A DNA stretch of 58,510 nucleotides, the filler included, from Streblomastix strix (Eukaryota), in assembly GCA_008636045.1 (NCBI GenBank). It is 2 parts of 2 records of this genome, joined end to end, with 100 filler letters (N's around TTAATTAATTAA, not from the genome) between each part and the next. Parts side by side here need not be neighbours in the genome. Positions count along the whole stretch, not along the records: positions 29,332 to 58,510 come from SNRW01000106.1; 1 more part is not named here. One strand, written 5' to 3'. The notes beneath the pieces are model-generated. The model searched no databases and was not told the DNA's origin. It was given only the letters and a program-made list of their open reading frames with translations. Both the position numbers and the translations under genes were made by a program. Numbering within the stretch: the first letter of the stretch is position 1; the number at the start of each line of letters is the position of its first letter. Shown here piece after piece: positions 3,455 to 49,137 of this stretch.

Positions 3455-3507
3455 AAATAGTTTCAATATCCAAAAATAAATTAATTACTGTTCGTACTAT
3501 GGTATTT

Positions 3508-8738: not shown

Positions 8739-9412
8739 TGGAAAATGTAATTAAAATTTTGAAACGATATTTTTGAAAAAGCGTGAATTTCTGAAAAACT
8801 AAAAAGTAAAATTTAAGAATAGAAATCTAAAATAATAAATTTTTTATAATAAATTTTAATATATGAAATCAAAAATTAATTAATTAATTTTAGAATAATT
8901 CATAAATGAAATCGTTCAAAATAAAGTTTAAGATAGAAAATAATTTTCAAAAATTATTGCTGAACCCAAAAATAGAAAATACGGCACTATTTATTAATAT
9001 CTATTTATTAAAAACAAATGTCAATATAACCGATAAAAAATAAAATTAAATGCGATTTTTAAACGGGTGCGATGCCCGTCTTCCCTATATTATTTAGTTA
9101 TTGACATGGATTCTTCAACCAAAAATTTCTTAATAGATTTATAAATAATTAAGCTTAGTTTATAATGATCTTGTTAATATTTAAAAAGAAATAGTACCGT
9201 TAAATGTTTATTACACACAGAGAAATATCAGATATTTCATAAAAAATTCTGAACTTTATTTGAAATTCAACATTAAATTAAATTTATCACTATATCAAAA
9301 ATATAAAATTTATTATTAATTAAAATTAGTTTTAATTTTATATATTTTTGCTTATATTTATTTATTATCCATTCGTTTTCATCAATAAATTTCTTCAAAA
9401 CATTTATTTTAA

Positions 9413-14484: not shown

Positions 14485-17097
14485 GGATTATTAAACACCC
14501 TTGATGAATTGATGGTTAGGGTCTATAACGAATAAAGACTATTTCTGACTTGGTTATTAATTTTATTTAATTTATATTAATTATGATGATGATGGCGATA
14601 GTGATAAGCATAGCTATTGTTATTATTCTTTTAGAGATCCAGTCTCAGATAATGATGTTTGGTGAGTTAGATTAAGCAATCCTGGGAAACCTTCGACAGG
14701 TTATAATGGATTTTGTTCTGCCATATTATTAAAATCATCGTTTTTTCCTGTTTGTTGATGTTATAAATTATTAGGTGCTTCTGTTTAAGGTGCATGAATT
14801 GCGCCTGTTTGGGTAGGTTATTCAGTTTCGTTATTTATCTTTCCTTATTCATTCCTTGGGATGTCCACTATTTATTGCTGAGTATTCTACTCCAAATCTA
14901 TAACATCTATCTATTATCTCTATTCATTTTATATATTATTAACTGTGACATGCTGCTATTGGATTTATATTTCTTTATTAACTTCATGAAGTTAATTTAT
15001 CTATTATTGGATTTGTATGTTCACTTATTACTTCAGTTATTCTTAATTATTCTATGTTACGAGTAATTGTTGGGCTGTTCGAAAGGTCGCGATTGGTATA
15101 CGTCTTTCTTGATTGATTGATTCTGCACTTGTCTAAGAAACAGTGCTTTCTTCTTCAAGGTTTGGAGAGATATTGTTCGCTACGTGAAAAAGTTCTTCTT
15201 GAGCTGCTCGGAGACCTAGCATATAAACTGGAACCCCTGTAACTGTTTGCACTGGAGGTAAGGCTTATTCTCGTCTATCGTGTCGTATCCTAAATTATTT
15301 CAGTTGTTGTCTTTCGATCTCGCGGTGTAGACCTTCAGCCCAATCATCATTATTCTATCCATTTCCTGAACCTTCACTTGAAATTACTCTTCTTCTTTTC
15401 CTTCCTTTCCCCAAATCTAATTAATCATCTCTATCCTCTCGGTCTCTTTCATGTCTATGATTACAGTCGTGATCATGATCATGATCATGATCATGGTGAT
15501 AGTGATAGTTATCATCTTCATCTAAGTCCATTCGTACAGTATCTAGGTATAGGTCTGTATCCACATCTCTTCAGAATGATTTCCATTTGCTAATTGTTAA
15601 ATATTCCTGTCTGTCATGTCTTTAGATGAAAGCACTCACATTCAGGAGACCTTCTCCAAATCCTCTATGGTGTTCTCTACTAGCTTTCAAACCTATGTAT
15701 CTTAATGCGTAACTTCTTTATGCCCAGAAATCTCTATGCGTATTAAATTGTTATTAAGTCATATTTATTGTTAATTTTGGAGGGTCTATTGGAGTGAACT
15801 GGCTCTGATCTGCTCTCTGTGAATTCTTTCTGTTCCATAATGGCTATTAGTCTTATGAACTTCTCCTTGACAGGGCTGTTCCATGTGAATCTATTAATCT
15901 TCCATTCACGTATCTAGGTTCTTAAACCGGATTTTGTTGTTGTATGAGTGTTGGTGGTCTAATTGTTAGTAGCTGATTATATTATTAATTCAGTTACTCG
16001 GGATTCTAGCTCTGGAAGCTTGATTAAATGGTTGGATGGTCTGCTGAGCTTGGTGCTGGTGGAGTTAATAAGTTAGATTATTGCGTTTATTATACTCCAA
16101 ATGTCGGTGAACTCTACAGGAACTACGGTAAGCCTTCCGTAATGCTTGACTGTCTATATAATTAAATACTATAGCCTGAAGTAGGTTGGGCATGTTGGAA
16201 AAGGCCTGGTTACGGAAAACCTTAAAATTATTGTATTCCTTGGTACATGCCAAACCCCCGGAATGGCTATTATACCTATGGTTTTAGTATATGCTGTCCT
16301 GAATAAAATTGCTATACGATCTAGGTTGGTGTAAACGTCACCAGCTGTGGAATCTATTGCCATGGTACCATCGCAGTTGCGGAGTGTTGGCCTGCTTGCG
16401 GGTTAACTAGGTCCTGACTTCCCTGTCCTTATATCAGTCTCAACACATGCAATGGTTGAATTGCGTGTGACATGAATCCGCTATTGCCCAGATCGAATTA
16501 TTAGGCCACTTAAGCGCCTTCCTTCATCTGTATCCGGATGTAAGTTGACCTTTCTGCGAAGCGCAGTAGTGCAACACACATGCATACTAGGTCAATCAAT
16601 GTCTCTTTCGTGTTCCCTTCCAGTACATGTTGAATCGAAAGTATCGTAAGCTTGTACAGCATCAGGATTTGAAATAACAAATTCTGAATGTATCCATCCA
16701 CGCGGCTGTTCGCGGCTTTGTTCAAGACTTGGTGCGATGGTACCTCTGCGTGTCTTGTTACCTCTGGTGCATGCAAAGTTCGCGCCTTGTAGTCCCGTAT
16801 CTGCATTTGTGCGATTGGATTCGCCCAAAAATTTATTGCGAACGCGTTCCGCCCTGTTAGCAGTTCCATGAACCTCATGATGAAAAATTATATCTCCTGC
16901 ATCGGTAACGTCTTCAGGGCAGGTCCAGTGTCGGCATCTGTCACTGCAATCTCGCGGTCGCTCGCAAATACGTTGGTATCGCTCCCGTTCGCGTTCCTGT
17001 CGTCCATAAGCGGTTAGCTCGGTGTCATATTGAGATCAGCTCCATCTCGGAGGTGTGTGAACAATGCCTGTGCATTTTAACCACTTGCTAGCGTCAT
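11790..17097 (-). pseudogene. DIRS gag-like ORF (Q/P/R-rich), disrupted by a frameshift near 16445, an in-frame TGA at 15571-15573 and the internal duplication
   Basis: Frame from ATG 17097 (MTLASGQNAQALFTHLRDG...) includes ORF-track peptide 16510..16878 and continues as a Q-rich frame through 16400-14500 toward the RT. Confidence 0.65.
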
Positions 17098-17116
17098 GGT
17101 TCGCTTTCTTATTTTT

Positions 17117-17575: not shown

Positions 17576-20528
17576 TCATGTCTTTAATTCAGGGTCCAAA
17601 GGAAACTGATATTGTGGTAATTTCTTTACAGATTGGCTATTCACTCTAATTAATCTTCTAGGTGGCTTAATTTCAACAGATTAATTAACTTGAGTATTCA
17701 AGTTTATTCCATTTTCACCTGGTCTGGAATATAAACTTTTGTAATTTTCGAAATAAGAAGAAGGAGAAGAAGTTGATGGGGAAAATTATTATGATTAACT
17801 TGTTTGATCGGGTAATTGATTAGTTCTTATTTGTATCTTGTTTGATGATGGCTCAGTTATTGAATCTAAATCAGAAAATTATTGTTCGTACGGGGTTGAG
17901 AATTGTTCAAATGGAGATAGGATTGAGTTTTATGGAACCATGATTGATGGAGTTGCTGATGGTGCTTCTAATTGTATAGAAGATGTTTATTTATTTGGAG
18001 TCTATAACATTTCATTTGATTATTATTTTGATGAAGAAGAACTTCCTTATTAATATTCATTTTTTTCAGCAATTTTCTTTGGTTTCATTTGATACTGTAT
18101 GAAGAAATAGATGATTGCAATTGATGATCCAACAATAACAAGCGTGACAAGAACAACAATAAAAGTACCCCACCATGCAAACTTTGAATCTTATTCAGGT
18201 TCAGAGGGTGAATCTAATTTTTCTTCTGGAGAAATATCTATATCTTCAGATTTTTGTGGTTAAATATCAATATCACATTGATCCTTAGTATATGAATTAT
18301 CATTATTCAATGGACAAGCACAGTTATTTGGATGATTATCAGATGTGCATTTGCATCCTAATAGTGGTGTTATATCTGAATCGCATTGAGTTAATAATGC
18401 ATATTACTTCTCAGATGCGCACTATGTCAATGTATAGGATGTATCCAAATCATCATGTGGACATTAACAATGTTCCGGATAATTACCAACAGAGCATTTG
18501 CATCTATTTGGAGATGGAGTACTTTAAGAACAAACAGGTAGTTTATCATATTCACATTAGGTCTTTGTATATTCATCATCATCATTCAATGGGCAAGTGC
18601 AATCAGTTGATTCTGTTGGATGATTGTCATGCGAGCATTTGCATTCTAATATTGGCGTATTATCTGAATTACATACAGGCAATAGCTCATATTACTTCTC
18701 AGATGTGCATTTTGTTAATGTATAGGACGTATCTTCATTATTTAGTGGGCACTTGCAGTAACTTGGATAATTACCAGAAGAGCATTTGCATCCTCCACTA
18801 GGTTCTGAATCTCCAGAACAAACAGGTAGTTTATCAAATTAGCATTATTCTTCAGAATAATTAGAATCGTCATATGGACAAGTGCAATCAGTTGGTATAG
18901 TTGGATGTTTATCGGTTGTGCATTTACATCCTTCTGTTGGTGTTGTATCAGAATCACATGGAGATAGTTTATCATACTCACATTCTGTTTTGGTGTATGA
19001 TGCATCATCATCATTCAATGGGCAAGTGCAATCATTTGGCTCTGTTGGATGATAGTCATGTGAGCATTTGCATCCTAATAGTGGTGTTATATCTGAATCG
19101 CATTGAGTTAATAATGCATATTACTTCTCAGATGCACACTATGTCAATGTATAGGATGTATCCAAATCATCATGTGGACATAAACAATGATCTGGATAAT
19201 TACCAACAGAGCATTTGCATCTATTTGGAGATGGAGTACTTTAAGAACAAACAGGTAGTTTATCATATTCACATTAGGTCTTTGTATATTCATCATCATC
19301 ATTCAATGGGCAAGTGCAATCAGTTGATTCTGTTGGATGATTGTCATGCGAGCATTTGCATTCTAATATTGGCGTATTATCTGAATTACATACAGGCAAT
19401 AGCTCATATTACTTCTCAGATGTGCATTTTGTTAATGTATAGGACGTATCTTCATTATTTAGTGGGCACTTGCAGTAACTTGGATAATTACCAGAAGAGC
19501 ATTTGCATCCTCCACTAGGTTCTGAATCTCCAGAACAAACAGGTAGTTTATCAAATTAGCATTATTCTTCAGAATAATTAGAATCGTCATATGGACAAGT
19601 GCAATCAGTTGGTATAGTTGGATGATTGTTACCTGTGCATTTACATCCTTCTGATGGTGTTGTATTAGAATCACAAGGAAATAGTTTATTAATTAGGCAG
19701 TACTCTTCAGGATAAGTTGATTCATCAGTTCCGGTACAGCTGCATGAAGGATCATCATGCTCATCAAATGTGCATATTCCTTTGTCTTATAAGCATTATT
19801 GCAGAGTATATGTTATTGTATCTATCCCAATACAGCTGCAATAATCTGGATGACCTTATGCTGTACATATGCACCCTTCGTAATCACCCCCTAACTCATA
19901 TTATGAATCCCAACAATATCCTGAAATAGTTTGTAGGTTTATATACAACAGAATCACTCCTTAAGGCAAATAGGAAATCTATATTTTAGATTGTAAGTGA
20001 GCCTATTCGAAGATCGATTGTATTTGTAGTTGAAGAACCTGTGCCAGATTTCCAAATGGTTTGCGATTATCCGCTGACCGTACCCTATAAAAATCAAACA
20101 GAAATATTAAATAAATAAGAATTAACATTAAAAATGAAAATAATTAAATAATAAACCTTTATGAGAATTGTAGAAATTTGGTTTATCAATAAGTTTTCTG
20201 TATGTTCAGAATCTATCAGAGTGATATCATATCCATCTGTGCATGTTTCTTAAAGAGCAAGAGCAACTGTAGTATAATCTCCACTAGTTCCTATTCTTTA
20301 TATACAAGGATCATTTGAGAACTTCCTAGGTAACTATTGAGCGTTTTTCGGTTCCATAAAATAATTTACGGGTTTAGTACGCTATTCAATTTGACTTGAA
20401 GTACGATCAATTTCAATGATTTGAGATGACGCACAAACAGTAGTGTTTCCATGGACGGCAGGGTGTGGTTTTCTAAATCCAAATGGAAAACCAAAGGACA
20501 GTGACACAAGCGCAAGGATGATAATCAT
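17576..20528 (-). CDS. Cysteine-rich repeat type-I membrane (surface) protein; frame break near 19925
   Basis: Signal-peptide-like MIIILALVSLSFG; intron 20085-20156; array of about 40-aa six-Cys repeats (LPVC..GCKCS....P..C.CP......YT...C); TM helix WWGTFIVVLVTLVIVGSSIAIIYFFI; S/P/Q-rich tail; TGA at 17576-17578. Confidence 0.8.
18295..19690. repeat. In-frame higher-order tandem duplication, 717-bp (239-codon) period, within the Cys-rich array
   Basis: GCATTTGCATCCTAATAGTGG at 18347 and 19064; ORF-track ends 18801 and 19518 differ by 717. Confidence 0.93.
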
Positions 20529-21161: not shown

Positions 21162-24100
21162 TCAATCAAGCATTGCCAATATTTCACTTTATCTATTAAA
21201 CTTTGGCATTTTATATGTATGACTATGTAATTTATTTAATATTAATAAATACATATAACGTAGAAAGAAAGTATGTATTAAAAGCCAAATAAATATCTAA
21301 TAATAAATACCTTAAACCATAAGCTTTACGAATATCTTCAAGTAAATTCACAATAACTTCTTAATTTCCTTCCATAATCTCTTTCTCTTTTGTCAAATAA
21401 TGTAGTGGCATAGCCTGAATTAAAATGAATAAATAAATATAAGAATAAATATTTTATTAGGATATTAATCATAACTTAATATTATTTAAATTAGTATATT
21501 AATTATAATTAATAATATGATAAATAAAACTAATGCAAACTTTCCTTTGTGTAACTATTTCAAGAGCTTTTCTGATATTATGCTGATATTAAGCAGTTGA
21601 TTTCGGCTCCCAAGAAACGCCTTGCAATTTAATATGGTCAAGCTACTCAATAATCCTGCAGAGAACGGTGCCATCTGTGAGCTGCATTATTAAATTAAAA
21701 TAAAGTTAATAATAAATAATATAATGATATTTATATATTAAACATCTAAATATATATGTAATATTATAATTACTATTTATTGTTATATATTTATACTTCA
21801 TAAATAATTGGAGAGTCGAGTGAAAAAGGAGAAGACAATCGGATTCCAAGTGATTCAAGCCATTTAGCCAGAAGATATGGCGGTTTTGGAGCCTGAATAG
21901 TAATAGTAATATTAATATTAAAATACAAAATATGAAGTAAAAAAAAAAATTATAATATACAACTAAAAACAATATATTACAAACAAAATAAACTAAAATA
22001 TCATCACAAACCAAATCCAACGCCATCATATACGCTTTTTATTTCGTCTTGGATGCTTTCAAAGCCTGCTAAACCTCAGTTTATTATCCGAGTTCTTCTT
22101 CCTCTGCAATTTCTCCATTTGGAAGGAAATTCTGCTTCTTCATCGCGTGCGGAGGCAAAGGTAGTTAGTGTTCCAATGGATCAGGATACACTTCGAAGTC
22201 TTCATCGTTGATCCTTCTTTTGACTGACCCGTGTCTTATATTCATATTCATTGTTGGTTTGGGGCCTACAGTGATACTTGGTTGTGCTATTCCGCCTTAG
22301 AAAATGCTTTATTTCTAGCCAATTGGATTCTTGTTCCATATACTCGACGCTCCATACATAGACGGAGCATTCAGCTCAGATGGAACTATGCTGATCCTTG
22401 AGCGGGATTTGTTCATTGTTTTCCCTAATCCAGTTTATGCCATACTAAATGAGAAAATAGACCGAATTTCATCGTGAACAGCTTTTTTTGATCTGTGACC
22501 AAGCTTCCCTAAATTTCCTCCATATTTCTAAGAAACTTGAGATTGCCCAGATATGCTCTTCCTCCCAGTAACTGACCCATTATCATTCATTATTTAGCCA
22601 GACACCGATTTCTGATTTCCAGTTCTCCTGGTTACAACAGAACCATTCCCATTAATAACAGTCGATAGATCACCGTCTCCTAAGTCAGCAACTTGTGTGG
22701 GTTAACATCCAGTAAAAACATCTGGCGTTAGAAAACCAGGTCTTTTCTCCTTTGATACGGATATAGCTGATAGTAGCGATGATGACATTGAGTCAAAGGA
22801 ATCAAGTTCGTCGTGATCTCTGTTTTGAACTTGGCCACTCAATAACGACTGCGCATATGCCATTGATGCTGAAGATGACATTCTGTTCAGGCCGTGAGTT
22901 TGATTTATTGATCCTGATCGGTTGGTGGTCATTTACCCCTGACGTGACGTGGGGGGTTTTCCAGCTTGTGCTAGTACTAATTATGACAATGATTGTCTGT
23001 TCGTTTTATTCGCATCTAAGAAAGTCTACTATTTATCTGATTATTATTACTGCAATTTCCCACTTTTCGTAATAAGTCCCATAGCAGCTTTCTTAAACCC
23101 ACCTTTAAATAGGCCTTTTCTCTTCATTTCGCGGATCTCTTTTAAAACTCTCTGTCTTTCATTCTCCTTCTTCTGTTTCTCCTCAATTTCAGATAATCTC
23201 AGCTTTTCAGCATCTTCTTCTTTCTTGTCAACATCTTTGAACTCTTTAATTTCATCTATTACTCCTTATGCAGATGTGGGTATTATATACTACTTCTAAA
23301 GCGGTTTCACACCTTGATAGCATCTGTACATATCGTCCAACACACACAGGATAGCATTTCTATCTCCAAATAAGATGTGGTCACCGCACCACAAATTCCT
23401 GTTCGCTAAATTCGGGCAGTTTCGGAGCAGATCGAGCGCCTTTTCAATGTTCCTCCTGGCAATAGCAGGCGTCTTTGGGTCAACAGTCATCCCAACTATT
23501 CTCTATTTGCTCAACATCGATGCCAAATCACACAGTAGAACACCACTCCTGAAATTGGGTATCAACTCGTCAATACATGAAGGGATCGGGCCTGAAACAA
23601 TCCCTAGAGAAACAATCCACCCCAGAAGTGCACCTTCCATCTCATAATTGATCTCAGGTTTATAAGGCATAGAATGGTACGGAGGTGGTGCAGGTGGCAA
23701 TGGGATGTTCCCTCTGTTACCGAACATCGACATCCCTTGTTACTATTCTGCTTATGAAGTTGTGAGTTGTATCCCAATACCTGACGTGGATCCGTGTGCT
23801 GATGTCTGATCTGTGGATTCGCGGTTGTGCCAGAATTGGTATTGCGGGTTTGAGCTGAACTTCTCTGATACTGTTTAATAGTATTACTTCTGCCCAGGTG
23901 ATTGCGTTGGGAAAGGCTGGATATTCGGTTTGTCGTATTCAAATTATGTTCCGCTGTATTTGGCAATAGCTTATCCAGTCGCTGGATATCTCTTTGCTTC
24001 TCTAATTCGCTTCAACTATTCAAAATCAGCCTCGTTTTTCCCACCAGAATCAGACAAACTGACCAAATCCTGCTCATACTTCCTCTTAATATCCAAATAT

Positions 24101-27039
24101 AGCCCCCACATCGACCCATTCTCATCATGCATGAAAGCGTCGTGGTTCGAAAGATAAGACAAATCCACTCTATGGTCAGCTCTAAGCACAGTAAAAGCTC
24201 TCCCTATGTTCTCCCTCGCTTCAGATATAGTCAAGACTGACCTAACTCCGCCCAAAGCTGGTTTCTTAGCATTTGCAACCTTCGATCTCGACTGGGATGA
24301 TCTACTGATGCAGCAGTCGACTACATCGCATAGGACGGCACCGTTGCGCATAGGGTTGGCTATGACATGCGCTGATTAGTGGCTGTCGAGGACTTCGATG
24401 TGTAATTGCCTGAGCCACTGCAGGACTTCGTACTGCTCCATTTTTGTTACTCTGGGGTGGTCGTCGATTATCTGAGGGTGTTACAATAATAATATTATTT
24501 TAATAATTAAATAAATAATATACAATATATAAATATATAAATTTATTATAAAGATAACAAATTTTATTAAATATTGATAAATATAATTTTTAATATTTAA
24601 ATAAGTTCATTTATTAAACGATATAAACATATTTACACACTCCATCTCTCAATATTCTGTGCTCCACTTTATCATATTCAATCACAGTTGGTCCTTTCTT
24701 CCTTTTCTTTTTCTTCTTTCCTGCAAATCTGGGATCTTTTGATTGGGATAATTATTCTTATTTCTCTTTTTAGAGTTCTTCTTCTGTTTTTCGAGGAAGT
24801 GGAAGTCCTGATAATAATATACAAGATAATAATAAAAAATTATTCAATCAAATATATATAATTCAATTTAATTTAAATATATTTATTTATATTTAATGCA
24901 TTATTTCTTTTTTATTTAATCAATATAAATTAATTAATATATAATATTATACCAGGTGTCCCCAAAGGCCACAATTATTCTGGTGTTGGAGGAGGTTTCT
25001 TCAATTGTTTCTTCTCGTCTTTAAGTGTTTTTATCAAATAAGAACTTGCAAAACTAGTCGGGAATTTTCCACCTCCTTTTTTAATGCTTTCTTCCATTTC
25101 AATCTCAATTTATGCTTAAATTTCTTTTTCTCGCTTAATTTGTGAGTCTCGCAGAAGAGTAAGTTTCATTTTCGGAGGTGATTTGTATTATAGAGTATGC
25201 GGATCTATTGGATCAATTATTCCATATTTAACTTTCTTATGCCCATATTATTATTCATTTGAATTTGAATTTGAATTTGCACTAACGCTTCTTTCTTTAT
25301 TTTATTCATCTCGAATTGGAGATATGGATGATGAATAATTTCGTTTCGGTGTAAAATTACTTCCTGTTGATTATCTGTTTAAATATACATTTGTTCCTTG
25401 TGGTGCATACGTTGATCCTAATTGAAAAGATTCGGAATTAGTTTTGTTTGATTTCAGATCAGATTAAGATTATTATTATTGTTGTTGTTGTTGTTGTTTA
25501 TTTTATGGAGATAATGAAGATGATGAATTTAAATTGATGTTTCTTTGTTCTTTTATATTAGCTTGTTATGTTTCTGGTGATTTGAGAGGAGATTAAAGAT
25601 TATTTGTTTGAGAAGAAGATTTACTTTCTTTTGCGTGTTATTAAGCTGATTATTATTTTGGTCCAATTAAAGCTTCTTTTTTATTTATTGGACTTTGTTT
25701 CTAATTTGAATATTTCTGATTTGGACTTTGATTTGATTTATTATTCAGATTTGGAGATGTTGATCTCAATGGTTCTACTAGTGATCCATGAGATGAAAGT
25801 TTTTCTTATTATTGAGATTATGATTATTTTTAGATTTAATTTGGTGATTATTATTGAGTTTGTGATTAATTAGGTTAACTTTATGATATTTTCAATGAAT
25901 TATTTGATGATATCTTGATTGAGCTTTATGGAGAAGCTAATGTAGCTGAAAAAATTGAAGGTGCGTTTGATTTTAGTATTTAATTATCGTTTTAATTAAA
26001 TAATTCATTGATTTTATTACTTTCTTCATTTTAATGTTAATTTTATTCATTTTCATTAATTATCTAATTATTTGTTTATAATGGAACTTTCACAACATCA
26101 ATATCAAAATCAGATGAAAGATTGTTTTTCTTTGAATATTATTTTCTTTTCTTCTTCTTCTTATGTTATTATGTATATTCAGATGCAAAAGATTCGTTCC
26201 AATTATTTTCCCACGCTTTAATTCGTTTTTCATCAGAATAATATTATTTCAGTTTTTATTTATATTTATATTCATCATCTGGAGATAATGAATTTCCAAT
26301 TGAATGTTCTGGTGAAGTTGAAAATGATTCATTTTGCATTTGATTGAAGTTTTCACTTATATTTTGACCTTTGATGTTTTATGTTGAATTAGGAACTTAA
26401 AGTGATTAATATTATTACAGATATTATTATTCTTGATATTATAATTACTGTTATTAAAGTAAATGTGACAGTTTGCTCGGACTCAATTTAGATGCTTCAT
26501 GTCCTAAGTTAACAGTATATGATTATTGCCACGCTGATAATGGAATTGGTTAATCTGATGGAGAAAATCCTCGAATTGAAGATGATTATATTTATTATTT
26601 TATTAATTATGATTCTTTTGATTTCAAATTGGATTATTAATTAGAATTAATATTTTGATTATAGTTTTCTTTTCCTTATAAGTTTCTTCTCTAATTTGGT
26701 GACAATGTTTCATTCTTATTTTTAAATCCAAATGTATTGATTGTTGAATTATCAATTTATTATGAAAATGATAATTATTATTATTATGATTATATTTAAT
26801 CTTAATTTGTATATATACTCAATTGTTCTTACACTCTTTTAGGTAAAGGTGGTGATGGAATTTCTGATTTTGAATTTAGTTCATATTTAGAAATTGAATT
26901 TCGAATATTGATGCTTTTCTTAAGTGGAACTTCAGCTTTGTTTTCTTTTAATAGACTTTGATATAATGTTTCTTTTTATTTTGGTGATTATTAAGTTTAT
27001 TAATGTTTTGTTTGAATAGTGTTCTTTTATTCAAAATTC

Positions 27040-32300: not shown

Positions 32301-35300
32301 ATTTAATTGCTGATCCTTATTATTTCATTTTTCTTCCAGATCTTCCATAAACTCCACCCTTAATCATATTTATACATAATAATATAAAAATTATTAAAAT
32401 AAATAAATAAAATTAAAATTAATTACAATTAATTAAGAATAAATGATATGAATATTTATATTACCTAAGAACTTCCTATAGCTTCTAATCCAAATAAACC
32501 ATCTTCTTCCATTTAATCTAATTCATTTCTTTATTATTAATCATCATCTATATCTTTTTAAGATAATTAATATTTGCTTTGTTATTTATTTGATTTAGTA
32601 ATGTTTTTTATTGGAGTTTATAATAATAAATCTTTATTTTATAATTAAATTTATTATTTTTCTTCAATAATATGTTTTTCTTATTAATTTATGTTATATT
32701 AATTAATGTTTCCTTATTATTTAATAGGAATATTTTCTGATTAATAATCAATTTCTAATTCAATTTAATTGTTTCTTTATTTATCTTCTATATTTATAAT
32801 ATCTTCATCATCATCTTCATCATCATGATTCTATTTCACAAGTTTTCTTCTTTGCTGATTCTGCAATCCATTTGTATTTAAATTAATTTTATTATTATTT
32901 TATTCATTAAAACCGCTTATTGCTGAGTTATAATTATCAATATCAAAGAAATCATCATTATCTTCTCCCATATATTCATTCTAAATATTAGTTGTATCTC
33001 TAATTATATCTTCATTTTCATTATCTAAACTATAATCATCCTCATCTTCATCTTCATCATTTAATGAATCTCCCAATTTTTCTCCTTCAATTGTACCTTC
33101 ACTCATTGATAGCATTGTTATCATCATTAATTTATCATTAATTTCATTTCCTAATTAATTCCTTTATTATTTATTCTTATTTATATTATTCATATTTTCA
33201 TTCATTTAATCGATCTATTCATTGATCCAACTAATTTTATTTCTAATTCCTTAAGTACTTTTAGCCATTTTTGAAACCCAAAAAACTTCTTCTTCTTCTT
33301 CCCATCCTTTTTGTCTCGCTTCCCAACGAAGATCACTCAATCTAATTTATTAACAATTAAATTATTATTAAACTACAATAATTTACAATTATAATACCTA
33401 TATAGTGACAAAGTAAGTGCAGATAATTAGATAATATCTCCTAATGTATCAATTCCCCATTAACCCATTCTAAATTATTTTATTAATAATAATGTTAACT
33501 TATTTACATTAATATACAATAAATAAAAATATATAAAAATAATTATTATTAAATAAAGAAATTTATATTAAAATTTATATAATAGTATATTTATACACTA
33601 ATACTTCCAATAATTCATTGTCTGATAAAAGTGATGCTTCAATTACTCTTCTTACTCCAACAACTAAATGTATCCTTTTCCAAAGAGGTAAATACTAATA
33701 TATATATACAAGAATACAAATAATAAATATCTTATCTGAAATTTATGAAAAAGAATATATATAGTGAAATACGAATAAACCTGCGCTTAAGCAAATAATA
33801 AATCTCCTTCATTTTCTTCCTCATCTATTCCATTATTCTTCTTTAAGTTTTCCTGGTTCTTTTCTTTCTCAAATTCAATTTTCATTGCTAATAACTAATA
33901 ATAATAAATATATATTATATAAAGTGAATATTATATTATAAATGAAGTTAAATACTTCATCATCTGTTAATTCAGTGTCTTCAGTAATAAGAACTGTATT
34001 AACAGCCCAAACTAACTCTACAAGAAGTCGTAAAGCCGATCAAATTTCTACATATCTATAATAATATTAAACATAAAAAATAAATACTAAGATAAAAAAA
34101 AATTTAAAGATTAAATATTTTTATTTAATAATGAATAAAGGACTTTATACTTATCTTTCATTCCAATCCATTCAACAATCCTTTGAATAATTAATCTAAA
34201 TAAATCAATTCTTAGCAATACATTAATAACAGTGGTATCATATCTTGGCATTCTTATATGAAGAAGACAAGGTGCCATTTAAGAAAGAAATTATTGTTAT
34301 TAATATTACTGTTATGACTAAGAAATGAAAGATGAAGAAATATTCTATGATTAAGATTATAAAGCACTAAATGATTTTGTAGATGTATCAATTGATATAA
34401 TTGTTGGTAACTAATATTATTTTGTATTCATATTATTGCTAGTTCTATTATCTTCAGTAAAATATGTTTATTAATCTTAAATAATTTACCTTTTTATTAA
34501 TTTTCTTTTTTAAGGATCAATTGGAATTGGAGTAACGCCGCATGAGAGGATTGGTAAGAATGGTTAACTTCCTTCATTTAATTATATTTCTATTAATTCT
34601 TCCTGTTCTTATTCATATTTTTCTTAGTCTTTTACATCATTTCTTTATTCAGAATGCATCAATTAAACCCACCATTTCATAGACTTATTTTCATATTATT
34701 ATCTTTTTAATGAAAGAATTAAAGCAAATAATCTTATAGTGTATATCCAACTGATCATTGGAATTTCATTTTCTCCATCCATTCCAGACAATCCCCTTAA
34801 TAATCCTCCTAATGAACATGATATTAACTATTCAGATCGTAAAGACAATGTATTACAAGCTGACCATATAATTCCTTTTCCAATTTACGTTACTCTGGAT
34901 AATGCACTTCTACCAGGTAGAAGAATCTAATCAAATCTCCCTCCTTTCGAGCTGTTACTAATATTTGAACCTGCATAAGTAATATCTTATATTGAATATC
35001 CATCATTTATCTAAATTCCTTATCTTTGTTATGTTAATGGATGATTAGACATATTTATATTTAGCGGATCAATTTTATGTAATTTGATTATTTATTAATT
35101 TTATTAATTCAAATTTTATATATTATCATCTTTTAATGTTATTTTTGATCTGGGAGCTCCAATTGTTGATGTAAGTGGTGTAAGTGTTTGAATTGTTCCT
35201 TATTATTAACTTATTTAACTTATTTAATTTTATTATTTAATATTTTGATAAGATTTCTAAAATGCAATAATTGGTCCTGTTCCTGATGATTAAGCTATTG

Positions 35301-37252
35301 ACTTCCTTTCCTGGATATATTATTAATATAATGAAATAGTAAAGCAATGAAATAAAAACAAACCTTCAGTTTAGCAAATAAATTTAAATTATTATTTTGT
35401 AAGTGCGTTTATGAATGAAGCTCTAATAATCGATCTTTAGCACTGGTGTTGTGAGTTAATATTTCATTCTTATTTTATTATGGTTATTGTAAGGATAATT
35501 ATGATGGTAATGAAGAAAAAATAGATTAATGATTTTATTTTTCATTTCTATTAATCAAAGAAGGAGGAAACATTGTATTCAATGAATATTATTATTTCTC
35601 ATTTTCTTTATCTTATTTACTTTTATTCTCCAATTCTAATTGTATTTATTGTTATTTAATTTTCTCTAATCATTATTCTCTTTCTATCTTTCTCCTCATC
35701 TTCCTTATTCTTTCTCCATTATTACCCCCACTTCTGATATAATCAACACATAATCTATCTGGATGTGCATCTCTTATAATAAGCCCATAGCAATCAATGA
35801 CCAACTGTGATATTGATGATGTGTTCAATGTCATTAATGCTGCTGTTGTCATTGCTTATGTTACTGAAGATACTATTGAGTGAAGAGTGTGTTATTATGA
35901 CTAAGAAGATTAAGAATGATTGTTTTCATTTCTATTTATTAAATATTCATTACTTTAATTAGTATTGAAATAATTATTGTTGTTTTTATTATCAATATTA
36001 GTTTAGTTTGCTTTGCTATCATTCATCTATCCATCCTGTTAATCTTCTTCTTCTTCTTCTTCATTCCAACTCATCTCTACATCCACAGCCAATTAATGAA
36101 GACGTGGAGCATGTGGCATTAATATTCTACAATATGGAATAATCTCAACAATTAATGCTAACATATCAAATATTCCAGTTACTTCAAATGTCTTTAGTAA
36201 TTGTTCATGTTTTGGACCACTCATGAATAGTATGTTTCTAATTAATGTTAAAAGTAATTCAATTAATGCTCCATCTTCTTCTTCCATTGAAATTAATGAA
36301 TAAAGCTTATCTATTTATTCTTTTTCATTCTCTCTCTAATCTTCTTCAAGTACCAAAGCATTTTATATCAATTCAGCTTCTTCTTCATTTTCTTCTTCTT
36401 CTTCTTCTTCTTCTTCTTCTTCTTCTTCATTTTCTTCTTCATCAAATTAACTTTATTCTTCACTATTATCCTCTTCATCAGAGAACAAATCATCTGATTC
36501 ATTTTCTTTATTTAAATTGTTTTGTTATTAATTAGTGTTTATTAGATTTGATTTATCATTATTTGCAATATCTATTTTATTTGATTATTAATTTAATTGA
36601 TCATTTTCATTTCCTCCTTTTTCTTCATCTTCATCATTTTCAACTTTAGTTATTTCTTCTTCCCCATTTGGTAGTAAATTCATAAACAATGAGACAATAT
36701 ATAAATAAAGCCTTTCATTAGAAACAAAATCTTCTTCAAAATGATATATAGTGTCTCTAAATCTCAAAGGTCTTCCAACATTCTCTTCAATTTCTAATTC
36801 TTCTGCTCCTTTTATATTATGAGTTAAAAGAGTAAGATCAGTGTTTGTTGGCATTGAAACAAGTGTGAGAATCTTTAGTGCAGATAATTATATAGTATGA
36901 AGCATTTCTATGTTTGCCATAAATCCAGTTTCTTTTTCTTGTTCTTCTTTCAGTATTCTTTCTGAACAAGCAATGAATAGTGGTATAATAACTTTTGAGA
37001 TCACATGGTTACGCGCAAGGCTTTACCATATAAGACGATTTGCTCCTTCACGATTCAGTAATCCAAAAAGTAATCTTACATTCTATTATGACCGTTTCAG
37101 CTCTTGACTGTAATAAAGAAACAAATAAAAAACTTGTGATATTAAATGGTGGGTAATAACCTTTAATTTCCACTCAATTCTCCGCTTTAAATCTTCTTCA
37201 ATGTAACAGCAAGAGTTGATATCGCATATGTAGCAACATCAGTTGAAGGCAT
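29332..37252 (-). CDS. TIMELESS: Timeless/Tof1/Swi1 family replication-fork protection protein, multi-exon, 3' end lost in the gap; two in-frame TGA codons
   Basis: Collinear Timeless-like motifs: ALKILTLVSMP, EEEDGALIELLLTLIRNILFM..KHEQLLKTFEVTGIFDML, LVIDCYGLIIRDAHPDRL, SALRLLVELV, TLGDIIQLSALTLSL, SIYIESLFK, with long acidic/Q-rich insertions. No frameshift found; one splice junction near 33470-33600 is uncertain. TGA at 35670-35672 and 34040-34042. Confidence 0.78.
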
Positions 37253-38029: not shown

Positions 38030-39660
38030 CAATATATAAATACAACGTCTTACTCAGCGTCTTCGCAATGTTTAAGATGAAAACAGCAGATCTCAGATAT
38101 TGTCTGGTGAACAGTCTTTGTTTGATAAATAGAAGGTTAAGTATGAAGAATTATAAGCAAATTATCATTTAACTGTTGAATAGATGCAGAGAGATGTTGA
38201 AAACTTATAGAGACATCAAGATCAGGAAGTAAGGAACATGCTCTTGATATAAAAGAATTGGAAAAGAAGAATCAGAAAATAATTAAAGATGCGGAGAAGA
38301 AGAAATAATAAGAAACGGATGAATAGATTGAAGAAAATGAAAGATAATGTAAATAACATGAAGAATAGATATTAAAAGAAATGAAAGAATTAGAAAATAG
38401 ATTCAAATAAGTATAGACAATTAAATCTGAGATTAATTAAGAACGCGATAGAAGAGAAAGAGACATTTAGAATGTATTTGCATAGAAGATTGTTTAGATT
38501 AAAGAAATTGAGAAAGTGAATATACAACAGCTCATTCAGAACATTCAGAAAGTATTCAGAACTTATGATAAAGAACTGAGGAATCTGAATAATTAGTAGA
38601 AGAGATGAAGAATAAACTTGATGAAGATACCAAACGTGAACATGAAGCTAGTACTATATATCAACAATCATTATAACATGCAGTTGAGAGAACAAGATCA
38701 GATGCATTATAAGAAACTGTAGAACTGAACAGAAGACTTAATCATAGATAATCTGAATTGGAGCTACAATCAAAAAGAGAAAAAGAAGCATATCGTATTC
38801 GTGAAGATGCTCTTATAAAAGATACTAGCCAAAGAGAACAAGCTTTGAAAGAACAATCCAAAAGACTTAGAAAACAATATGAAGAGAAAGAAATATAGAA
38901 GGATAATGAAAGAAAAAGATGGAAGAGTTAGATCAATTCAGCCAGCGATGAAACAGAAGATGAAAAAAAAGAGGATTAAATAATAGAATAAAAGAGATAT
39001 AGAATAGATAAATGAAGAATCTGAGAGGAGACTATAGGAATTAGACAGGAAATGGTAGAGATAATTAACTGAAATGGTTGATGCATAGAATAAAGAGAGG
39101 GAATAATGGGAATAAGAGATAGATTAAAGGGAAAAAGAAGCTACTCAGAGATTTAATTCCTTTCTTAATGAGACTAAAAGAAGATAGGATAAAGAAGTGA
39201 ATGAATTATAATAAGCTTTAAGTAGTGCAATTGAAGAGGCTAAAAGGAGAGTGGAATAATTAGAAGCTGATATTCGTAGAGTTAAGAAAGAGAAAAAGAA
39301 TGAATTAGAGAAAGCTAAGAAAGATCGAGAATTTGAAAAAGATCATTGAAGATGAGAGATAGAAGTTCTTATAATAAGCACAGAATCGGGAGAATACGTT
39401 TAGATAGGCACTTGAGAATTTAGATCAGAAATATGCATAATTGTAAAGAGATCGTGAATCCATATATTAATTAGAGAAAGAACATGCAATTAAATAAGCA
39501 GATATAGAAAGATATATTCTAGCAGTATAGATTGAACAGAAAGAGGATGATATATCAAAATTAGAGATTAAATTGACTAGATAGATACAATATAATAAAG
39601 ATAGTTCAGAAAGAAGAGGAAGGGAAAATAATACAACAGATCTTGACAACGGAAAGTCTA
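38030..39660 (+). pseudogene. Decayed fragment of an E/K/Q/R-rich coiled-coil protein gene
   Basis: Coiled-coil-like reading must change frame near 38230, 38590, 39000 and 39380; TGAs near 39347-39355; no clear start. Confidence 0.7.
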
Positions 39661-40157
39661 AAGGAATATATTTTTTAAATATTGCCATTTTTTAATAATT
39701 ATTAATACGTATTATTACCTTAAAAGCAATAAATAAAATTAATTAAAAAGTCGATTATTTTTTCATTGGAATCAGATTTCGCTCCGCATGTCCAGTGAAT
39801 TTTTTAGTTTAATGTTTATTAAGTTTAATTAGACTTGAATAAATAATTTTAATTGCTTTAAATTACAACATATTTACATTCCGAGGAGTATTTCAACAAG
39901 CATTTTCTAATCTAAATTTTATTCTAATCGCAGCATTAAGTTATTGTATTACTAGATAATTACATACTTTAAATGATTAATTTTCAAAATTAAATTTTTG
40001 ATAAGTATTACAATTACTTTAGATGCATAAATGACGATTAATATTTTCTTCACAAACTTTATAATTCTGCTCTTAACTATTTTTTTTACAATATCTAACT
40101 ATTTACATTTTATTGATTGTTCATATATACATATTTTTATTTACTAAATATTGATAG

Positions 40158-43100
40158 ATGTTAGGTAATTAGAACAAAAAATAAAGATTAGAAGATCCAA
40201 TTTAGGAGTAAGTAAATATCTTGTGCAGCTCTGTATGAACTTTTATTTTATTGGAACTTCCTTATATTTGATTAACTGCATCGTTAGCTTGATTGTGACT
40301 AATCAGAAATGACACCATGCAAAGCAGTAGCTAATTTTTCTCCAACAAATGTATGTCATTATAAGTAATATTTATATTTTTCTTAATTTTTGAGTATTTT
40401 TGAAGGGAACAACCTATCTGCGAGTGGTAAAAGATGATGTACTAACTATAGACTCTTGGAGGTCAGATGATTATGCTATGTGTATAAACTCATCAGGAGA
40501 AAAAGGTCTCGTTCCCGGTATTTGTTTGCAGTTGGAGGATGCAAATATGAAGCATCCTTTCCTTGATGACGTTTATATGAAAGAAGTTAAACGTATAACC
40601 GTGGATAGCAAGAAATACATGCATTACAATCCTGTTGATAGACATGGAAAAAATTACGATTCAGGTCATTTAAGACATGATATCTAATGTCTGCAAACCA
40701 ATGAAAAGGCTGAAGTCTGTAATCGGAGGCCACATCGTCATTATAAGCCTGCTGAAATTGAATCTGAAAGTAAATAGATGGTAGATGAATTGTAGCATAA
40801 ATGTACATTTAGCAAACCTAAATTCCGTTCTCGGATATATAGTTAAATTATGTCTATTGAATTGTTGTTATTTCTGTTTTTAGAATTTATGTCTAAAGTG
40901 ATTCTATCGTTTACATCTGCTACATCTGACTGTTTCTATTCATTTGTTTATGGAGCTATGACTCTGGCTAGGTAGAACCCCACTGTCCCACTTGAAACTC
41001 TTTTTCCAAGATATTAAAGACAGAAAATTAGTGAGCTTATTAACGACAAAGGATAACAAATTCTTACAAACTTTTTAATGTCTTTAAAGAATTTCTATGT
41101 GTCTATACAAATAGATTCAGCCAAATTAGTTGATTAAAAGCTAACCATAGCAACCATATAGACCCCTTTCCTAAGTAGAAAGTCTATTGTAATCGATTAT
41201 TTTATTGGATCAGTAACATAAGATGCATTGGTAGCATTTGGAGTAAGAGTCTATAAAAGACTAAAATCATTTGGTATTAGAGTAATATCAGTTACTACTG
41301 ATACCTTAAGGCATCAAATTGCATCATTTGACCTGTAATCTGATAATTGTATTTATAAACTTATTAATGAAGGAATCATCCCTTATGGAGCATCTTGCAC
41401 CGCTCACGTTCTAAACTTATGTTATTGTGCAGATATATTAAAGGAAAAGCCTCTGTTCAATTTTAATAACAAAGTGTATGATATATTCAAAAAGTCGATT
41501 GGAAACAAGTGCAATGTAATTGTGAAACGATGGTTAGTAATCTTTGATATATTCATTTATCTACTAAAGAATGACTCAGATAAATTATAGAATATCAGTA
41601 AGTTAATCCTTATTTTTGGTCCTGCACGAGAAGCGAGTTTGCTGTTTGAGAGACTTGGTTCAACATATATTTGCGTATTCCCAATAATAGTTCAATTGAT
41701 TTTATATTATGATTGGTTGATGAAGAAATGGATCAAAGACATTAAGGAAGAATATTACTATGTACTGAGCGTGTTCTCAAATAATGTTTATAAACGTTTT
41801 ATTTATAATGATAAGATGCTGGAGCTATCCCTAATTTCATTTTCGTTAACAGTAAATGGAAGACGATGCTGTGCAATGGGAGAGTTCTTAAATGTTTCAA
41901 TGTTCAAGGAAGAGTTCAAACTGAAATCATTCCCGGATGAGTATCTTAATTCTTAATAAAATGAAGATCCACTTCCCATTATTAATTCAATTTCCAGTCA
42001 AATTTCACCTGATACTTAATAAGAATAGAAAATAAAATAAAGATTAGTTGATGATGGATAAAATATGAAACTAAATGAAGTAGCTGAATTAAATGAAAGT
42101 ATAAATAAAAATGAATAGATTAAAGAAAGTAATAACGAAAACCAAAAAGATTCTGCTGATGATGTATGTGATGACTAAATTGAGTCATAAAATTTAGGAG
42201 AAAGAAGTGAACTGGAACAATCATAGTATTCTGAAAGTTTAAGAGATAGAAAACAGTTGAATAAAAACAAAAAAGATTCTGAATATGTTTATGATTTCTT
42301 CTAAGATGATTATGAAGATAAATTAATAGAAGAATTAGATTAATCGCCAGAAAAGAGAAAATAAAGAAAATTAAATAAAAAATAAGAAAAAGAATAAGAT
42401 GACTACTAAGATTAGTCAGAAGATGAATCAGAAGATAAATCTGAAGAAATGGAAATTGAACAAAAAGAAAGAATTTAAAAGAAAGAAAAACCAAAAAAAC
42501 AAAGAAGTATTGTTCAAGAATAATAAAGAATCAAAGATAAAAACTACGAGCTTAGTTATGATCTACTTAAATAATTAAAATCAATTAATTTTCTCCATAT
42601 TATACTAAATGGATATGAGAAATATTATAATTTAATAAATAAAAATGAATAAACGACATATAACGATGATTCCACTCCCAATCCTTAATCATTAACTAAT
42701 GTATCATCAAAAACTTCAATTGAACAATAATCTTCTTCATCTTATTCATTGCAAACACCAACAAGAATTTTTCCCAATACTATACTTCTAGCTCCATTTT
42801 TTCCCAATTCAACCCTTCAAACATCAGTTACACCTTTATTACTTCCAAATATTCAAAATAATCTTAAATAAGAATCCTCTGTTGCACTTCATCTTTTAAG
42901 ATAACCTAAAATAACTGGACCAAAGTTATTCTTCAATCTTTGGAGAATGGGAGACGAAATTGCATATGACGATATGTTTGACAGCGGATATGATGAAGTG
43001 GAATACTTCAAAGTGCTATCACTTGATCCAGTATATAAAAACATTGGAGTATTTGCGCTTCACATGCTTGGATGTGCATGTACGGAAGCATCATGTGAGA

Positions 43101-43195
43101 GGGTCTTCGCAATACTAAGAAGAATTGTAAATTGTCATAGAAAGAGGCTGCTGATCAAAACAATCATTTCACTTTATATTTTTTTATCAAATTGA
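40158..43195 (+). CDS. hAT-superfamily transposase with N-terminal SH3-like domain, intact
   Basis: Inferred introns 40212-40287 and 40351-40405; then one open frame to TGA 43193-43195. hAT motifs SIQIDS (D), SVTTD (D), SCTAHVLNL (CxxH), KRW, CTEASCERVFAILRRI (E, dimerisation domain). SH3-like CKAVANFSPTNGTTYLRVVKDDVLTI...SGEKGLVPGICLQ. Confidence 0.88.
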
Positions 43196-43273
43196 ATAAT
43201 AAAATCTAAAATATCTTTCAATTTATGATATAAATTCTTTTCTTTTTTATTAACATTTATCTCATCTGTTTAT

Positions 43274-44975
43274 TCAGCTGAGCAACTTCTTGTAGTCCAT
43301 AATAATGTCATTGAAATTTGTCTGAAACACAGCACGAGCTTTTGCAATGAAGTCTTTTGGTATATCATTCGTTATTTGCATTGTGAAAGCATCTCTGATT
43401 TTATCCCTATCTTCAACTTGTACTCCTTCCTCAAGTGTGTGAACGATAGTCAAATAGAACTGGATGAAGAAATAGAGTTTATTTAGGATATATAATAATA
43501 ATATATAATAATAATATAGATCATTTCTAAGGAAGATGAAAGGCAATAATTCGTTTGTTGCTGAATATCGAAGTCTGTCATCACGTGTTTCAAATGTGAA
43601 GAGAATCTACATAAGCTCTTCAAATAAATATGCATACTAAGAAAAGAAAATATTAAGAAATGAAAAAAAAATGGATAATTAATAATAAACTAATAATAAT
43701 TATAATAATCAATACATCAGTCCTTAAGTATTGATAGTTTGCATTCCTTTAATTATCTTTTATTTCTATTATTACTAAGAAATAGAAAATAATCCAGCAT
43801 TTCCAGCTGATGATTATTCTTCAGATTATACCAACGATTGTATTTCAATTACTGAATGATGTTAAAGCTCCCAGTATTTTTTTCAAGAACATCAATCATC
43901 TATGGTGGAGTGATCACTTCCATTGCAACATCAACTACATGATGAAACACACCATGAGCAAATTATATTAATCCTTTACTTAGTTTAGGAAACATCTAAA
44001 GTTAGATATATTAAGAATAATAATACAACAAATAAGAATGTGAGATTAGTAAAATTTATTTCAGTTTTATTTTATCCATTTATTAATTAAATAATATTAT
44101 TTTTATAATTTGTATATATGCAAACCTGAAAGTCTCTATTATTTTTACTTACAAATAAGTGCAATGTAGCAGTAAGAGATGTTTATAATGAATCATCTTT
44201 ATAGAATGAACACTCGCCAAATGGGACATAATCGCCTTTAAATATAATAAGAATAAGAATAAAGATATATATAAGAATAAATATTTAAATATAAATTTAT
44301 TATTATAGTAATACAATTAGTGCATGCAACAAGAGTGTGTTCAATTGGTCTATTAATACGACTAGAACATAAATAAAAGAATTTAATCAATATTAAGAAA
44401 ATGAATGGAAAAGATAAAAATAATCTTTAAAAAAAATATGAATAATCTTCTTTTACTCAACTTTTATTATTTCTAAATATTCATACCTATAATGAGTCTC
44501 AACAATATCTTTCTTCAGTTTTTATTCAACTGATTATTCTGTCTAAGCTCTGGGATATTAAGAGAATGAGAATAAGAAAATGAATGATATATATAATATA
44601 TAAATATATAATGTTTCATATATATTATAATATATGAATATATATTATAGTATACCCATCATCCTTCATCATCTTCCTCTTCTTCTTATTATCTCCCTTC
44701 TCTCTTTCTCTTTATTATTCTTTCTCTCTTTCAATTTGTATTAACCCATAATTCCCTTCAATTAATTCTTATTAATTCTTAGACCTTCATTGCTCTAATG
44801 GTGTAATATATTGCTCTAGGATCCACAACTCCAAATTTGGAGTGTGCAGATGAGAAAGAAGATGATGGAAGTGATGCAGAAGGTGAAATAACTCCTGATC
44901 GAATATTATATACGTTTTCATCAAGAAATTCATCAAATTGTGATGAAATATTTTAAAACTCAATTCTCTTTAAAT
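43274..44975 (-). pseudogene. XPO7: 5'-truncated, frameshifted, intron-retaining fragment of an exportin-7/RanBP16-like gene (C-terminal part)
   Basis: Spliced translation gives DYVPFGECSFYKDDSLQTSL...DFQMFPKLSKGL and RYSATNELLPFIFL...KARAVFQTNF, resembling the exportin-7 YVNFGVFRLYGDD / YPKLS / WSMSRPLL / RDRFTQN region. Frameshifts near 44855 and 43860. Confidence 0.65.
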
Positions 44976-47231: not shown

Positions 47232-48305
47232 TCACTCTTTTGGTGATTTTTTTACTCGCTCGCCAAAAATCAAGCTTCCAATCCGTAAGTAATCAGCTCC
47301 TCTCTTTATCTAAGATATTAAGCAAAAAAAAACCATTTAAAAATAAAATAAATGATTCATACAGCTTCCTAATAAGAGTCTGACATTCCCATACTAAGAT
47401 TTATGTTTTTAGATCTAATTCTCGATCCTGGCATATCTTCAATTAAATCAATTTCAACTTATTTATCATTTTCTTCTTATTAGATTTATTCATCTTTGGA
47501 CTTACAAAACAATACTTTATCACGAGCTTCAACCTCAGGACATGAAAGAAGAATTTCTTTTAATCGAACAAGTTTCTTGATTAAAAAAATTAAATTATTA
47601 TAATCAAAATTTAATAATTAAGTATAGCATACATCAAAACATGAATAATCGCCTGGTTTTTCTACTGTCATTAAACCAATAAATTGTAGATTTCTACATT
47701 CATTTTACAAATACATAATCAGTTCAAGTATTTAACGAATATCAATATTGTCTTAGTTACCATCTTCTTAATTAGTGTTTATTTCTACACCACCAATCTT
47801 ACTCTCTTCTGGACTCGTCCTCACTTCTATTAAAACTTTAATAATTCGACGAGTTCCCTCACTTTCCAAACATTTCTAGATTTTTTCTGCTAACTTAATC
47901 GAATCAATTGTATGTATATACTGCAAATTTGGTACAGATAGTAATTACTTGATCTTATTAGATTAAAGATGTCCGATGAAATGCCAATCTATATCGATTG
48001 GTAACTAAATTATTAGAATAGGTAAAGAGAAAAATGATTTTTAGATATTAATAACATTGAAAATTTACCTCCTTTGACTTCTAGACAAGTTCTTGAACAT
48101 AATTTTCTCCAAAGTTGCGCTGCCCTGCATTGTAAGCAGCTATTATAAGTTCAACTCCTTTTGTTTTGGACACTGCAATAAGTTATGGCTATTAAATGTG
48201 TTTGTACAATTAACTGCAATCAGATATCGATTATAAAACGTCTTGCAAGTTTTATGTTATCATATCCTGAGTAATTGCAATAGTATCTGGTTTTATTGTG
48301 GTCAT
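47232..48305 (-). CDS. PLPBP: Pyridoxal phosphate homeostasis protein (YggS/PROSC/PLPBP family); 4 exons
   Basis: [27 protein letters not shown] (Q encoded by TAA), [20 protein letters not shown]; three GT-AG introns; TGA 47232-47234. Confidence 0.96.
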
Positions 48306-49137
48306 TTAATCAGTTTTATGAGTTATATGTCTGCTAAAATGAAAGTAAATTAAAATAATAAATAAATAATAAATAAATAAAATTTGATAAACGGCAGTAA
48401 AGTAAAGTAAATGAGTAAAAAAAAAATAAAAATAAAAAAATTGGTTAAATCCCTTTATATATGACACTGATTTTATCCAATTTTTATAGCACATTAGATA
48501 GATTTTGTTGAATACACCAACATTAATCAGCGTAATTTTCTTTGGGAGATCTGTATTAGTGGATAAGCGAGAAAAGGAAATTTGTGTATTATTACCTATA
48601 TTTTCATGGCATTATTTTGCTTAATTTTATTGCAATTTGTTCTATATAGCAATAAATTTATTATTAATATAAAATTTGAATAATATATTGATCTGTGGCT
48701 GTCAAAAAATTGTTTTTTGAGCAAAAAATAAATAAAAATACATTTCTTCATAGATAGGTTATATATTGTTAATAGTTCATTAAAAGTATTTTTTATTCAT
48801 AATAATTAATATATATACTAATTAATGCCAAATATGTTTCTAGATCAAAATATAATTTTATTGAGGCAATTGAAGGTTCTTTTTGAGATAATTAATACAG
48901 CACAATATATCAAAATTATTTAAAAAATATGCTTATTACTATTTTAAATTTTTTCTATTATCCAATTTTTTGATTAATAACCCACAGTTGTCATAAAATT
49001 AAAAAGAAGATTTTCTTAAAAATTTTAAAATAAATTTGCACAATATACAATAAATCAAACGATAATTACTACAAACGAATTATTTATATCAATTTCATGA
49101 TACTTTAAATTTATTTCATTAAAATTTTTAGGAATTT

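Follow-up and report, generated by a model that had tools for sequence, protein, structure and literature searches.

A hAT transposase with a predicted N-terminal SH3 domain in Streblomastix strix and the transposon lineage to which it probably belongs

Gene content of the locus

Streblomastix strix is a termite-gut protist. Its genetic code reads TAA and TAG as Gln, and in the window (the whole stretch of DNA analysed, 58,510 nucleotides with filler) long open reading frames (ORFs) are few with the standard code and many with translation table 6. In the table 6 reading, a gene on the plus strand at 40309–43195 (hereafter the SH3-hAT gene) encodes a hAT transposase of 944 amino acids and is the only copy of its family in the window. 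Exon 1 (40309–40350, +), with 14 codons from the start ATG at 40309, codes for the first strand of an SH3 domain and the start of its RT loop. A 55-nt intron predicted from the sequence (40351–40405, +; GT..AG, phase 0) lies within that domain, and exon 2 (40406–43195, +) carries the rest of it together with the entire transposase in a single open frame.

This frame is open over 933 codons in table 6 (40394–43195), and contains no in-frame TGA, whereas the two alternative frames have 13 and 62. The GC content of the intron is 16%, compared with 36–40% in the adjoining exons. Among 50 candidate N-termini ranked with an SH3 profile made without the SH3-hAT gene copy, the 55-nt splice came first with 34.8 bits versus 28.4 bits for the unspliced reading. 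The database model of the gene (P0002, KAA6403384.1, S. strix, 666 amino acids), titled 'SH3 domain-containing protein', has the identical first splice and also drops about 60 and 777 nt, in-frame, from an acidic insertion of the transposase. Translation from ATG 40309 after removal of the 55-nt intron yields exactly the N-terminus quoted in a sequence-only reading of the locus, and P0002 agrees with it. The second of the two introns inferred in that reading is unnecessary, the in-frame candidate at 40842–40883 being ruled out because it encodes a conserved helix that is kept as coding in the relatives.

The remainder of the window holds mobile-element-like and host-like sequences. Long table 6 ORFs at 2072–8915 (−), without a Pfam match at E 0.05, resemble by their motifs genes for an integrase of Polinton/Maverick type and for a protein-primed DNA polymerase B. 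A GC-richer block at 9413–17115 (−) contains DIRS-like retroelement pieces with weak matches to Phage_int_SAM_4 (E 0.003) and Dam methylase (E 0.02), as well as a duplicated stretch with 1451-base spacing. The Cys-rich repeat protein encoded at 17576–20185 (−), with internal repeats D2 and D5 and a C-terminal hydrophobic segment, is probably a surface protein. Host-like genes are located at 21469–24606 (−), 33337–37238 (−), 38050–39680 (+), and 47357–48701 (−). They include a calponin-homology protein (E 1.6e-10), a Timeless-like protein (E 0.0017), and a coiled-coil protein, and one, without a match in Pfam, is YggS/PLPBP-like by its motif.

The predicted N-terminal SH3 domain

The SH3 domain occupies residues 2–58 (40312–40537, +, intron included) and was delimited with Pfam, Foldseek, and VIA-align. 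Pfam SH3_9 matched the SH3-hAT protein with E 2.3e-5 and 24.6 bits, below its cut-off of 30, and Pfam detected an SH3 domain in only 1 of the 78 family rows (E 0.01); a profile of the N-terminal part searched against the PDB gave chance-level matches only. The AlphaFold model, based on 13 sequences, displayed a barrel of five strands across residues 2–57 with pLDDT 78–90 for residues 1–50. This predicted barrel resembles eukaryotic signalling SH3 domains, with which it shares 25–33% identity at an rmsd of 0.9–1.3 Å: Foldseek matched it to the SH3 domains of Eps8, Nbp2, and Csk (TM 0.89–0.92, rmsd 1.0–1.3 Å), and VIA-align to that of CED-2 (Z 11.9, rmsd 0.9 Å, 57 residues). In addition, the Atlas structure matches for residues 1–150 were SH3-bearing clusters throughout, whereas feature searches of Atlas yielded nothing usable. 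Structure prediction, put forward as a check on the SH3-like N-terminus, thus returned an SH3 fold.

The ligand groove is degenerate. Of the canonical positions (ALYDY, Trp, PxxY), A8 stands at the first Tyr of ALYDY, Y37 at the Trp, and C54 at the terminal Tyr, so the loss of the ligand-binding Trp and the terminal Tyr noticed earlier holds and the first ALYDY Tyr is missing as well. No PxxP-binding aromatic surface was found, and the ligand-binding Trp was absent in all seven family rows covering its column. In contrast to signalling SH3 domains, all S. strix copies have lost the first ALYDY Tyr and the Trp, and most the last Tyr, while the RT loop has a conserved Tyr or Phe in place of the acidic residue of the canonical motif. 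The domain is not basic, with 5 Lys/Arg and 6 Asp/Glu in the SH3-hAT protein.

Since 44 of the 58 SH3 residues sit in the exon and frame of the transposase itself, without a stop, separate transcription of the SH3 domain is hard to sustain. The same residues weigh against the explanation that the fusion is an artefact of gene model or assembly, in which an SH3 remnant would lie beside a transposase starting at M62. The coincidence of M62-K-H-P with the start of the SH3-less relatives L001, P0014, P0015, and P0077 is consistent with such an artefact, and so is the fact that splice and fusion are derived from sequence. Nevertheless, other subfamilies have no Met there and still show the SH3 domain joined to the finger, and the same order across the junction is found in a second contig, which together leave this explanation hardly any probability.

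Zinc finger and transposase core

The SH3 domain is followed by a predicted CCHC zinc finger, C109-x9-C119-x25-H145-x-C147 (40547–40804, +), recognised by conservation and by alignment of its H-x-C end with H71-x-C73 of Hermes. Among the rows with a residue, C119 was conserved in 59/61, H145 in 62/64, and C147 in 53/54; C109 aligned within one column in a smaller alignment and was misaligned in the 78-row alignment (7/54). The C..C..H.H cluster of the sequence-only reading does not describe this ligand set, as H124 and H126 vary across the relatives, and its placement 'in place of' a BED finger was overstated: the conserved CCHC finger is probably a divergent BED-type DNA-binding domain. According to PMC10368747, the BED finger of Hermes is likewise CCHC (C51, C54, H71, C73) and N-terminal with an H-x-C end, although its first two Cys are 2 residues apart rather than 9. 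The finger of the SH3-hAT family aligned weakly with the Hermes BED finger by profile, Pfam zf-BED matched none of the 78 family rows, and no Atlas fold exceeded TM 0.39 for the finger, which was searched as part of a larger model. The helical region that follows (40856–41080, +), containing the rejected intron candidate, matches the N-terminal dimerisation region of Hermes by alignment, profile, and model.

The catalytic and C-terminal motifs of a hAT transposase are all present. The catalytic residues D251 (41114–41116, +) and D313 (41300–41302, +) are Asp in 68/70 and 58/58 of the rows with a residue, the CxxH motif C345/H348 (41396–41407, +) has Cys in 54/54 and His in 53/54, and the RW motif R389-W390 (41528–41533, +) has Arg in 49/50 and Trp in 46/48. 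The third catalytic residue, E912 (43097–43099; Glu in 30/32 rows), belongs to the C-terminal hAT dimerisation motif (43034–43159, +), which PF05699 matched with E 2.7e-4 and 21.1 bits, just below the cut-off of 21.4. PF05699 also matched 13 of the 78 relatives at E ≤0.01 (best 6.9e-8), and the family profile aligned the C-terminal part to residues 460–602 of Hermes. The complete DDE triad with CxxH, RW, and the dimerisation motif, as first read from the sequence, is therefore borne out by conservation among relatives.

Hermes was the only significant match when the profile of 78 relatives was searched against the PDB (E 3.4e-23), and the best structural match of the full-length model (pLDDT 85, pTM 0.71; E 2.7e-12); P0002 as a single-sequence query against the PDB gave no match. 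The likeness to Hermes (PDB 4D1Q, 8EDG; PMC10368747) covers the DDE triad, CxxH (CSSH in Hermes), RW, the helical dimerisation region, the C-terminal motif, and the overall fold. The SH3-hAT protein differs in its extra N-terminal SH3 domain, in an identity of 11–14%, and in a far longer acidic insertion.

That acidic, low-complexity insertion (41936–42900, +), also described earlier, is open in frame by TGA count and partly spliced out in P0002. No TGA occurs in the 777 nt, which was equalled by 26 of 2000 shuffles. The acidic interval spans 407 amino acids in the SH3-hAT protein and 191–445 amino acids in eight full-length relatives; judged by these alignments, a long acidic insertion at the same place is a family trait. 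The observation of a hAT transposase with an SH3-like N-terminus is confirmed in the main, with an unbroken frame, conserved catalytic motifs, and a predicted SH3 fold.

Distribution of the SH3 domain in the family

A representative protein search returned 75 relatives. The S. strix records of the family number 15 and lie on 15 different contigs, hence as dispersed copies. The SH3 profile matched 9 of the 78 proteins scanned, all from S. strix (P0002, P0003, P0005, P0006, P0010, P0011, P0081, P0093, and, in part, P0018), and none of the 65 other relatives scanned; P0078 and P0079, also from S. strix, were aligned and lay outside the scan. A profile made without the SH3-hAT gene copy and its twin still detected the SH3-hAT copy with E 3.9e-9. 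The six S. strix records without an SH3 domain all begin downstream of its position. The records fall into five subfamilies that are about 20–35% identical, at least four of which carry the domain, with SH3 identities of 18–32% from one subfamily to another, the decayed P0003 being excluded. As a side observation, P0004, another family member, bears the UniRef label 'MULE transposase domain-containing protein', an apparent mislabel given that the family profile matches Hermes.

In a quick, unrooted tree of 73 rows, from which the SH3 domain had been left out, the 13 S. strix rows occupied one branch (SH-aLRT 98), and none of 500 shuffles was equally clustered. Five of the 78 rows (P0008, P0016, P0023, P0046, and P0050) were left out as too short, and the origin was looked up for 10 of the 60 outgroup rows, all of which were metagenome proteins. 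Each deep subfamily except P0010 holds close copies. As far as an unrooted tree allows, the simplest history would be that the SH3 domain was gained once, on the branch leading to the Streblomastix copies. The SH3 domain thus travels with the transposase, the two occurring together in nine S. strix records. For the earlier proposal of exon capture giving a new hAT lineage, these nine records support the lineage, whereas capture by splicing is not borne out: the junction lies inside exon 2 and the sole intron inside the SH3 domain.

The SH3-hAT gene is the sole full-length record among the 15; the other 14 are partial, stopping short of the third catalytic residue or beginning late. A search for longer SH3-bearing family proteins returned the SH3-hAT protein only. 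Partial records of this kind are what decayed element copies usually look like, and they may instead stem from a fragmented assembly or poor gene models.

Sister copy, mobility, and element ends

A sister copy of the P0003 type was recovered in contigs of run X1 and shares the stretch 40263–41380 (+) with the SH3-hAT gene. It is 95% identical over 40357–41359 in one piece and colinear from the SH3 domain to D313 in one contig, and its amino-acid changes match P0003. Its sequence is different upstream of about 40263, its splice acceptor is altered, and a frameshifting deletion has removed 551 bases (41380–41932). The differences are near neutral, with 13 of 37 codons synonymous versus 21–27% expected (39 of the 125 listed differences used). 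In the quick tree the branch of the SH3-hAT copy measured 0.0096 and that of the sister 0.079, and the SH3-hAT copy looks close to the ancestral state of its subfamily. Because the intron is retained, the sister was copied as DNA.

The sister contig reaches a depth of about 880 in run X1, compared with 31–34 for the SH3-hAT copy and 31–60 for the locus flanks; an amplified library would look alike, so this depth is not taken as copy number. Run X2 contained the sister contig, and the SH3-hAT copy was not seen in it. In run X3, from another study, pieces over the SH3-hAT gene (one with 1 difference in 151 bases) were found at depth 2–3 and give hints only. At the same depth and with the same reserve, one X3 piece runs from the final 37 coding bases through the downstream neighbour and then diverges in sequence.

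These copies might in principle have arisen without transposition, as orthologues or alleles from cryptic Streblomastix lineages that were mixed in an assembly of pooled cells, or as segmental duplicates. The published draft, according to PMC8767320, was obtained from amplified DNA of micromanipulated cells, which would permit such a mixture, and element ends were not seen. Yet the subfamilies are merely about 20–35% identical and most records are broken. Moreover, the sister contig does not span the locus flanks, which stay at their own low depth, so the sister is no allele of the SH3-hAT locus. A mixture of lineages or segmental duplication is accordingly regarded as very improbable.

Unlike in Hermes, neither TIR nor TSD was found at the SH3-hAT gene. 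The search for a TIR with an 8-bp target duplication gave three candidates, all A/T-rich, versus 0–3 in 10 shuffles, and local alignments of the flanks were not significant. A converging ORF at 43222–43708 (−), whose coding status is inferred, ends at 43274, its stop 78 bp past the stop codon of the SH3-hAT gene, so that a right end of the element would have little space. This ORF had no Pfam or PDB match; separately, a paralogue with 80% identity lies in another X1 contig without a transposase upstream. Because no ends were seen, the SH3-hAT copy may itself be immobile, yet able to mobilise derivatives.

The missing ends also bear on a reading of this copy as a domesticated host gene, fixed between host genes and serving as a programmed recombinase or a DNA-binding regulator, with the others as dead leftovers of its parent family. 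Its status as the sole full-length record, its tight packing among host-like ORFs, its short branch relative to the decayed sister, and its open frame of 933 codons would all fit domestication. However, a young or master element would be intact and short-branched in the same way. The dispersed sister with 95% identity is a recent product of the same subfamily, other subfamilies have close copies too, and every catalytic motif is intact, so that domestication appears unlikely, though less so than the mixture of lineages.

Comparison with known systems

Metagenomic hATs (P0009, P0014, P0015, P0020, P0027, L001, and others) share with the SH3-hAT protein the HP..C-x8/10-C..H-x-C finger, the core, and the acidic insertion. 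They differ in having no SH3 domain by profile, and several begin with a Met just before the finger, although metagenome gene calls can miss short upstream exons. The C-x8/10-C...H-x-C finger, not recognised by Pfam as BED, was observed across a broad metagenomic hAT set that also includes P0030 and P0057. A metagenome scan with P0002 confirmed none of 143 pattern matches, and one with family alignment A4 confirmed 1 of 65, namely L001 (ORF 73–2142). The L001 sequence begins about 100 bases before its ORF, with an in-frame stop just upstream, a leader so short that a further exon may lie beyond it. On the downstream side of this ORF, short GGACA/TGTCC repeats may be subterminal repeats.

Host-transposase fusion genes of tetrapods are, as far as is known, single-copy. 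Those such as KRABINER, GTF2IRD2, and SETMAR likewise join a host domain to a transposase; in S. strix, by contrast, the fusion is present in many copies and has its junction within an exon. According to 10.1101/2020.05.07.082677, the host part and the transposase part of tetrapod fusions are encoded by distinct exons of host genes, and hATs supply 23.4% of these fusions. Neither the main text of that paper nor that of PMC12062965, in which 10 million proteins were screened for TE-host domain pairs, contains the term 'SH3'; the supplement of the latter may list SH3-transposase pairs. A literature search covering titles and the starts of abstracts, with thin coverage of subscription papers, returned no report of an SH3-hAT fusion.

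Proposed origin and function

Because eight other, mostly very diverged copies carry it, the SH3 domain likely marks a transposon lineage with a long-ago uptake of a host domain. The SH3-hAT gene is thus probably a member of a Streblomastix-specific hAT lineage, whose ancestor took up a host SH3 domain once and kept it through repeated transposition. The domain would probably have been gained as a piece of host DNA, since an intron lies inside it and none at the junction. The catalytic part is expected to act as established for hATs such as Hermes, with the CCHC finger recognising subterminal repeats, the DDE core cutting the element out via hairpins with the help of CxxH and RW, and insertion creating an 8-bp duplication.

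As the fold is kept, the canonical groove lost, and the charge not basic, a role in protein docking is favoured for the SH3 domain. There is about an even chance that it offers a non-canonical docking site to a host factor or an adjacent protomer, while a somewhat smaller chance is given to a passenger domain. Binding of DNA by the SH3 domain is judged less likely, and indeed rather improbable, because of its neutral charge. A more specific and tentative proposal, on balance doubtful, is an active hAT clade in which the captured and repurposed SH3 domain tethers the transposase to a host protein and thereby steers integration or activity.

Significance

Extra domains on other transposons are known. 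In most known host-transposase fusions the host keeps the transposase, and the evidence from S. strix, a single species, points the opposite way. The hAT N-terminus evidently accommodates an extra folded domain, a point that matters for retargeting hAT vectors, and a wider metagenomic hAT set with a long-spaced CCHC finger, unnamed by Pfam, comes to light. If the tether proposal is true, the SH3 domain would be the DNA-transposon counterpart of the chromovirus chromodomain, made from a cytoplasmic signalling module. For the family itself, a transposon lineage would have retained a signalling domain of host origin while diversifying deeply, with the canonical binding surface of the domain erased, which implies a selected function for the element.
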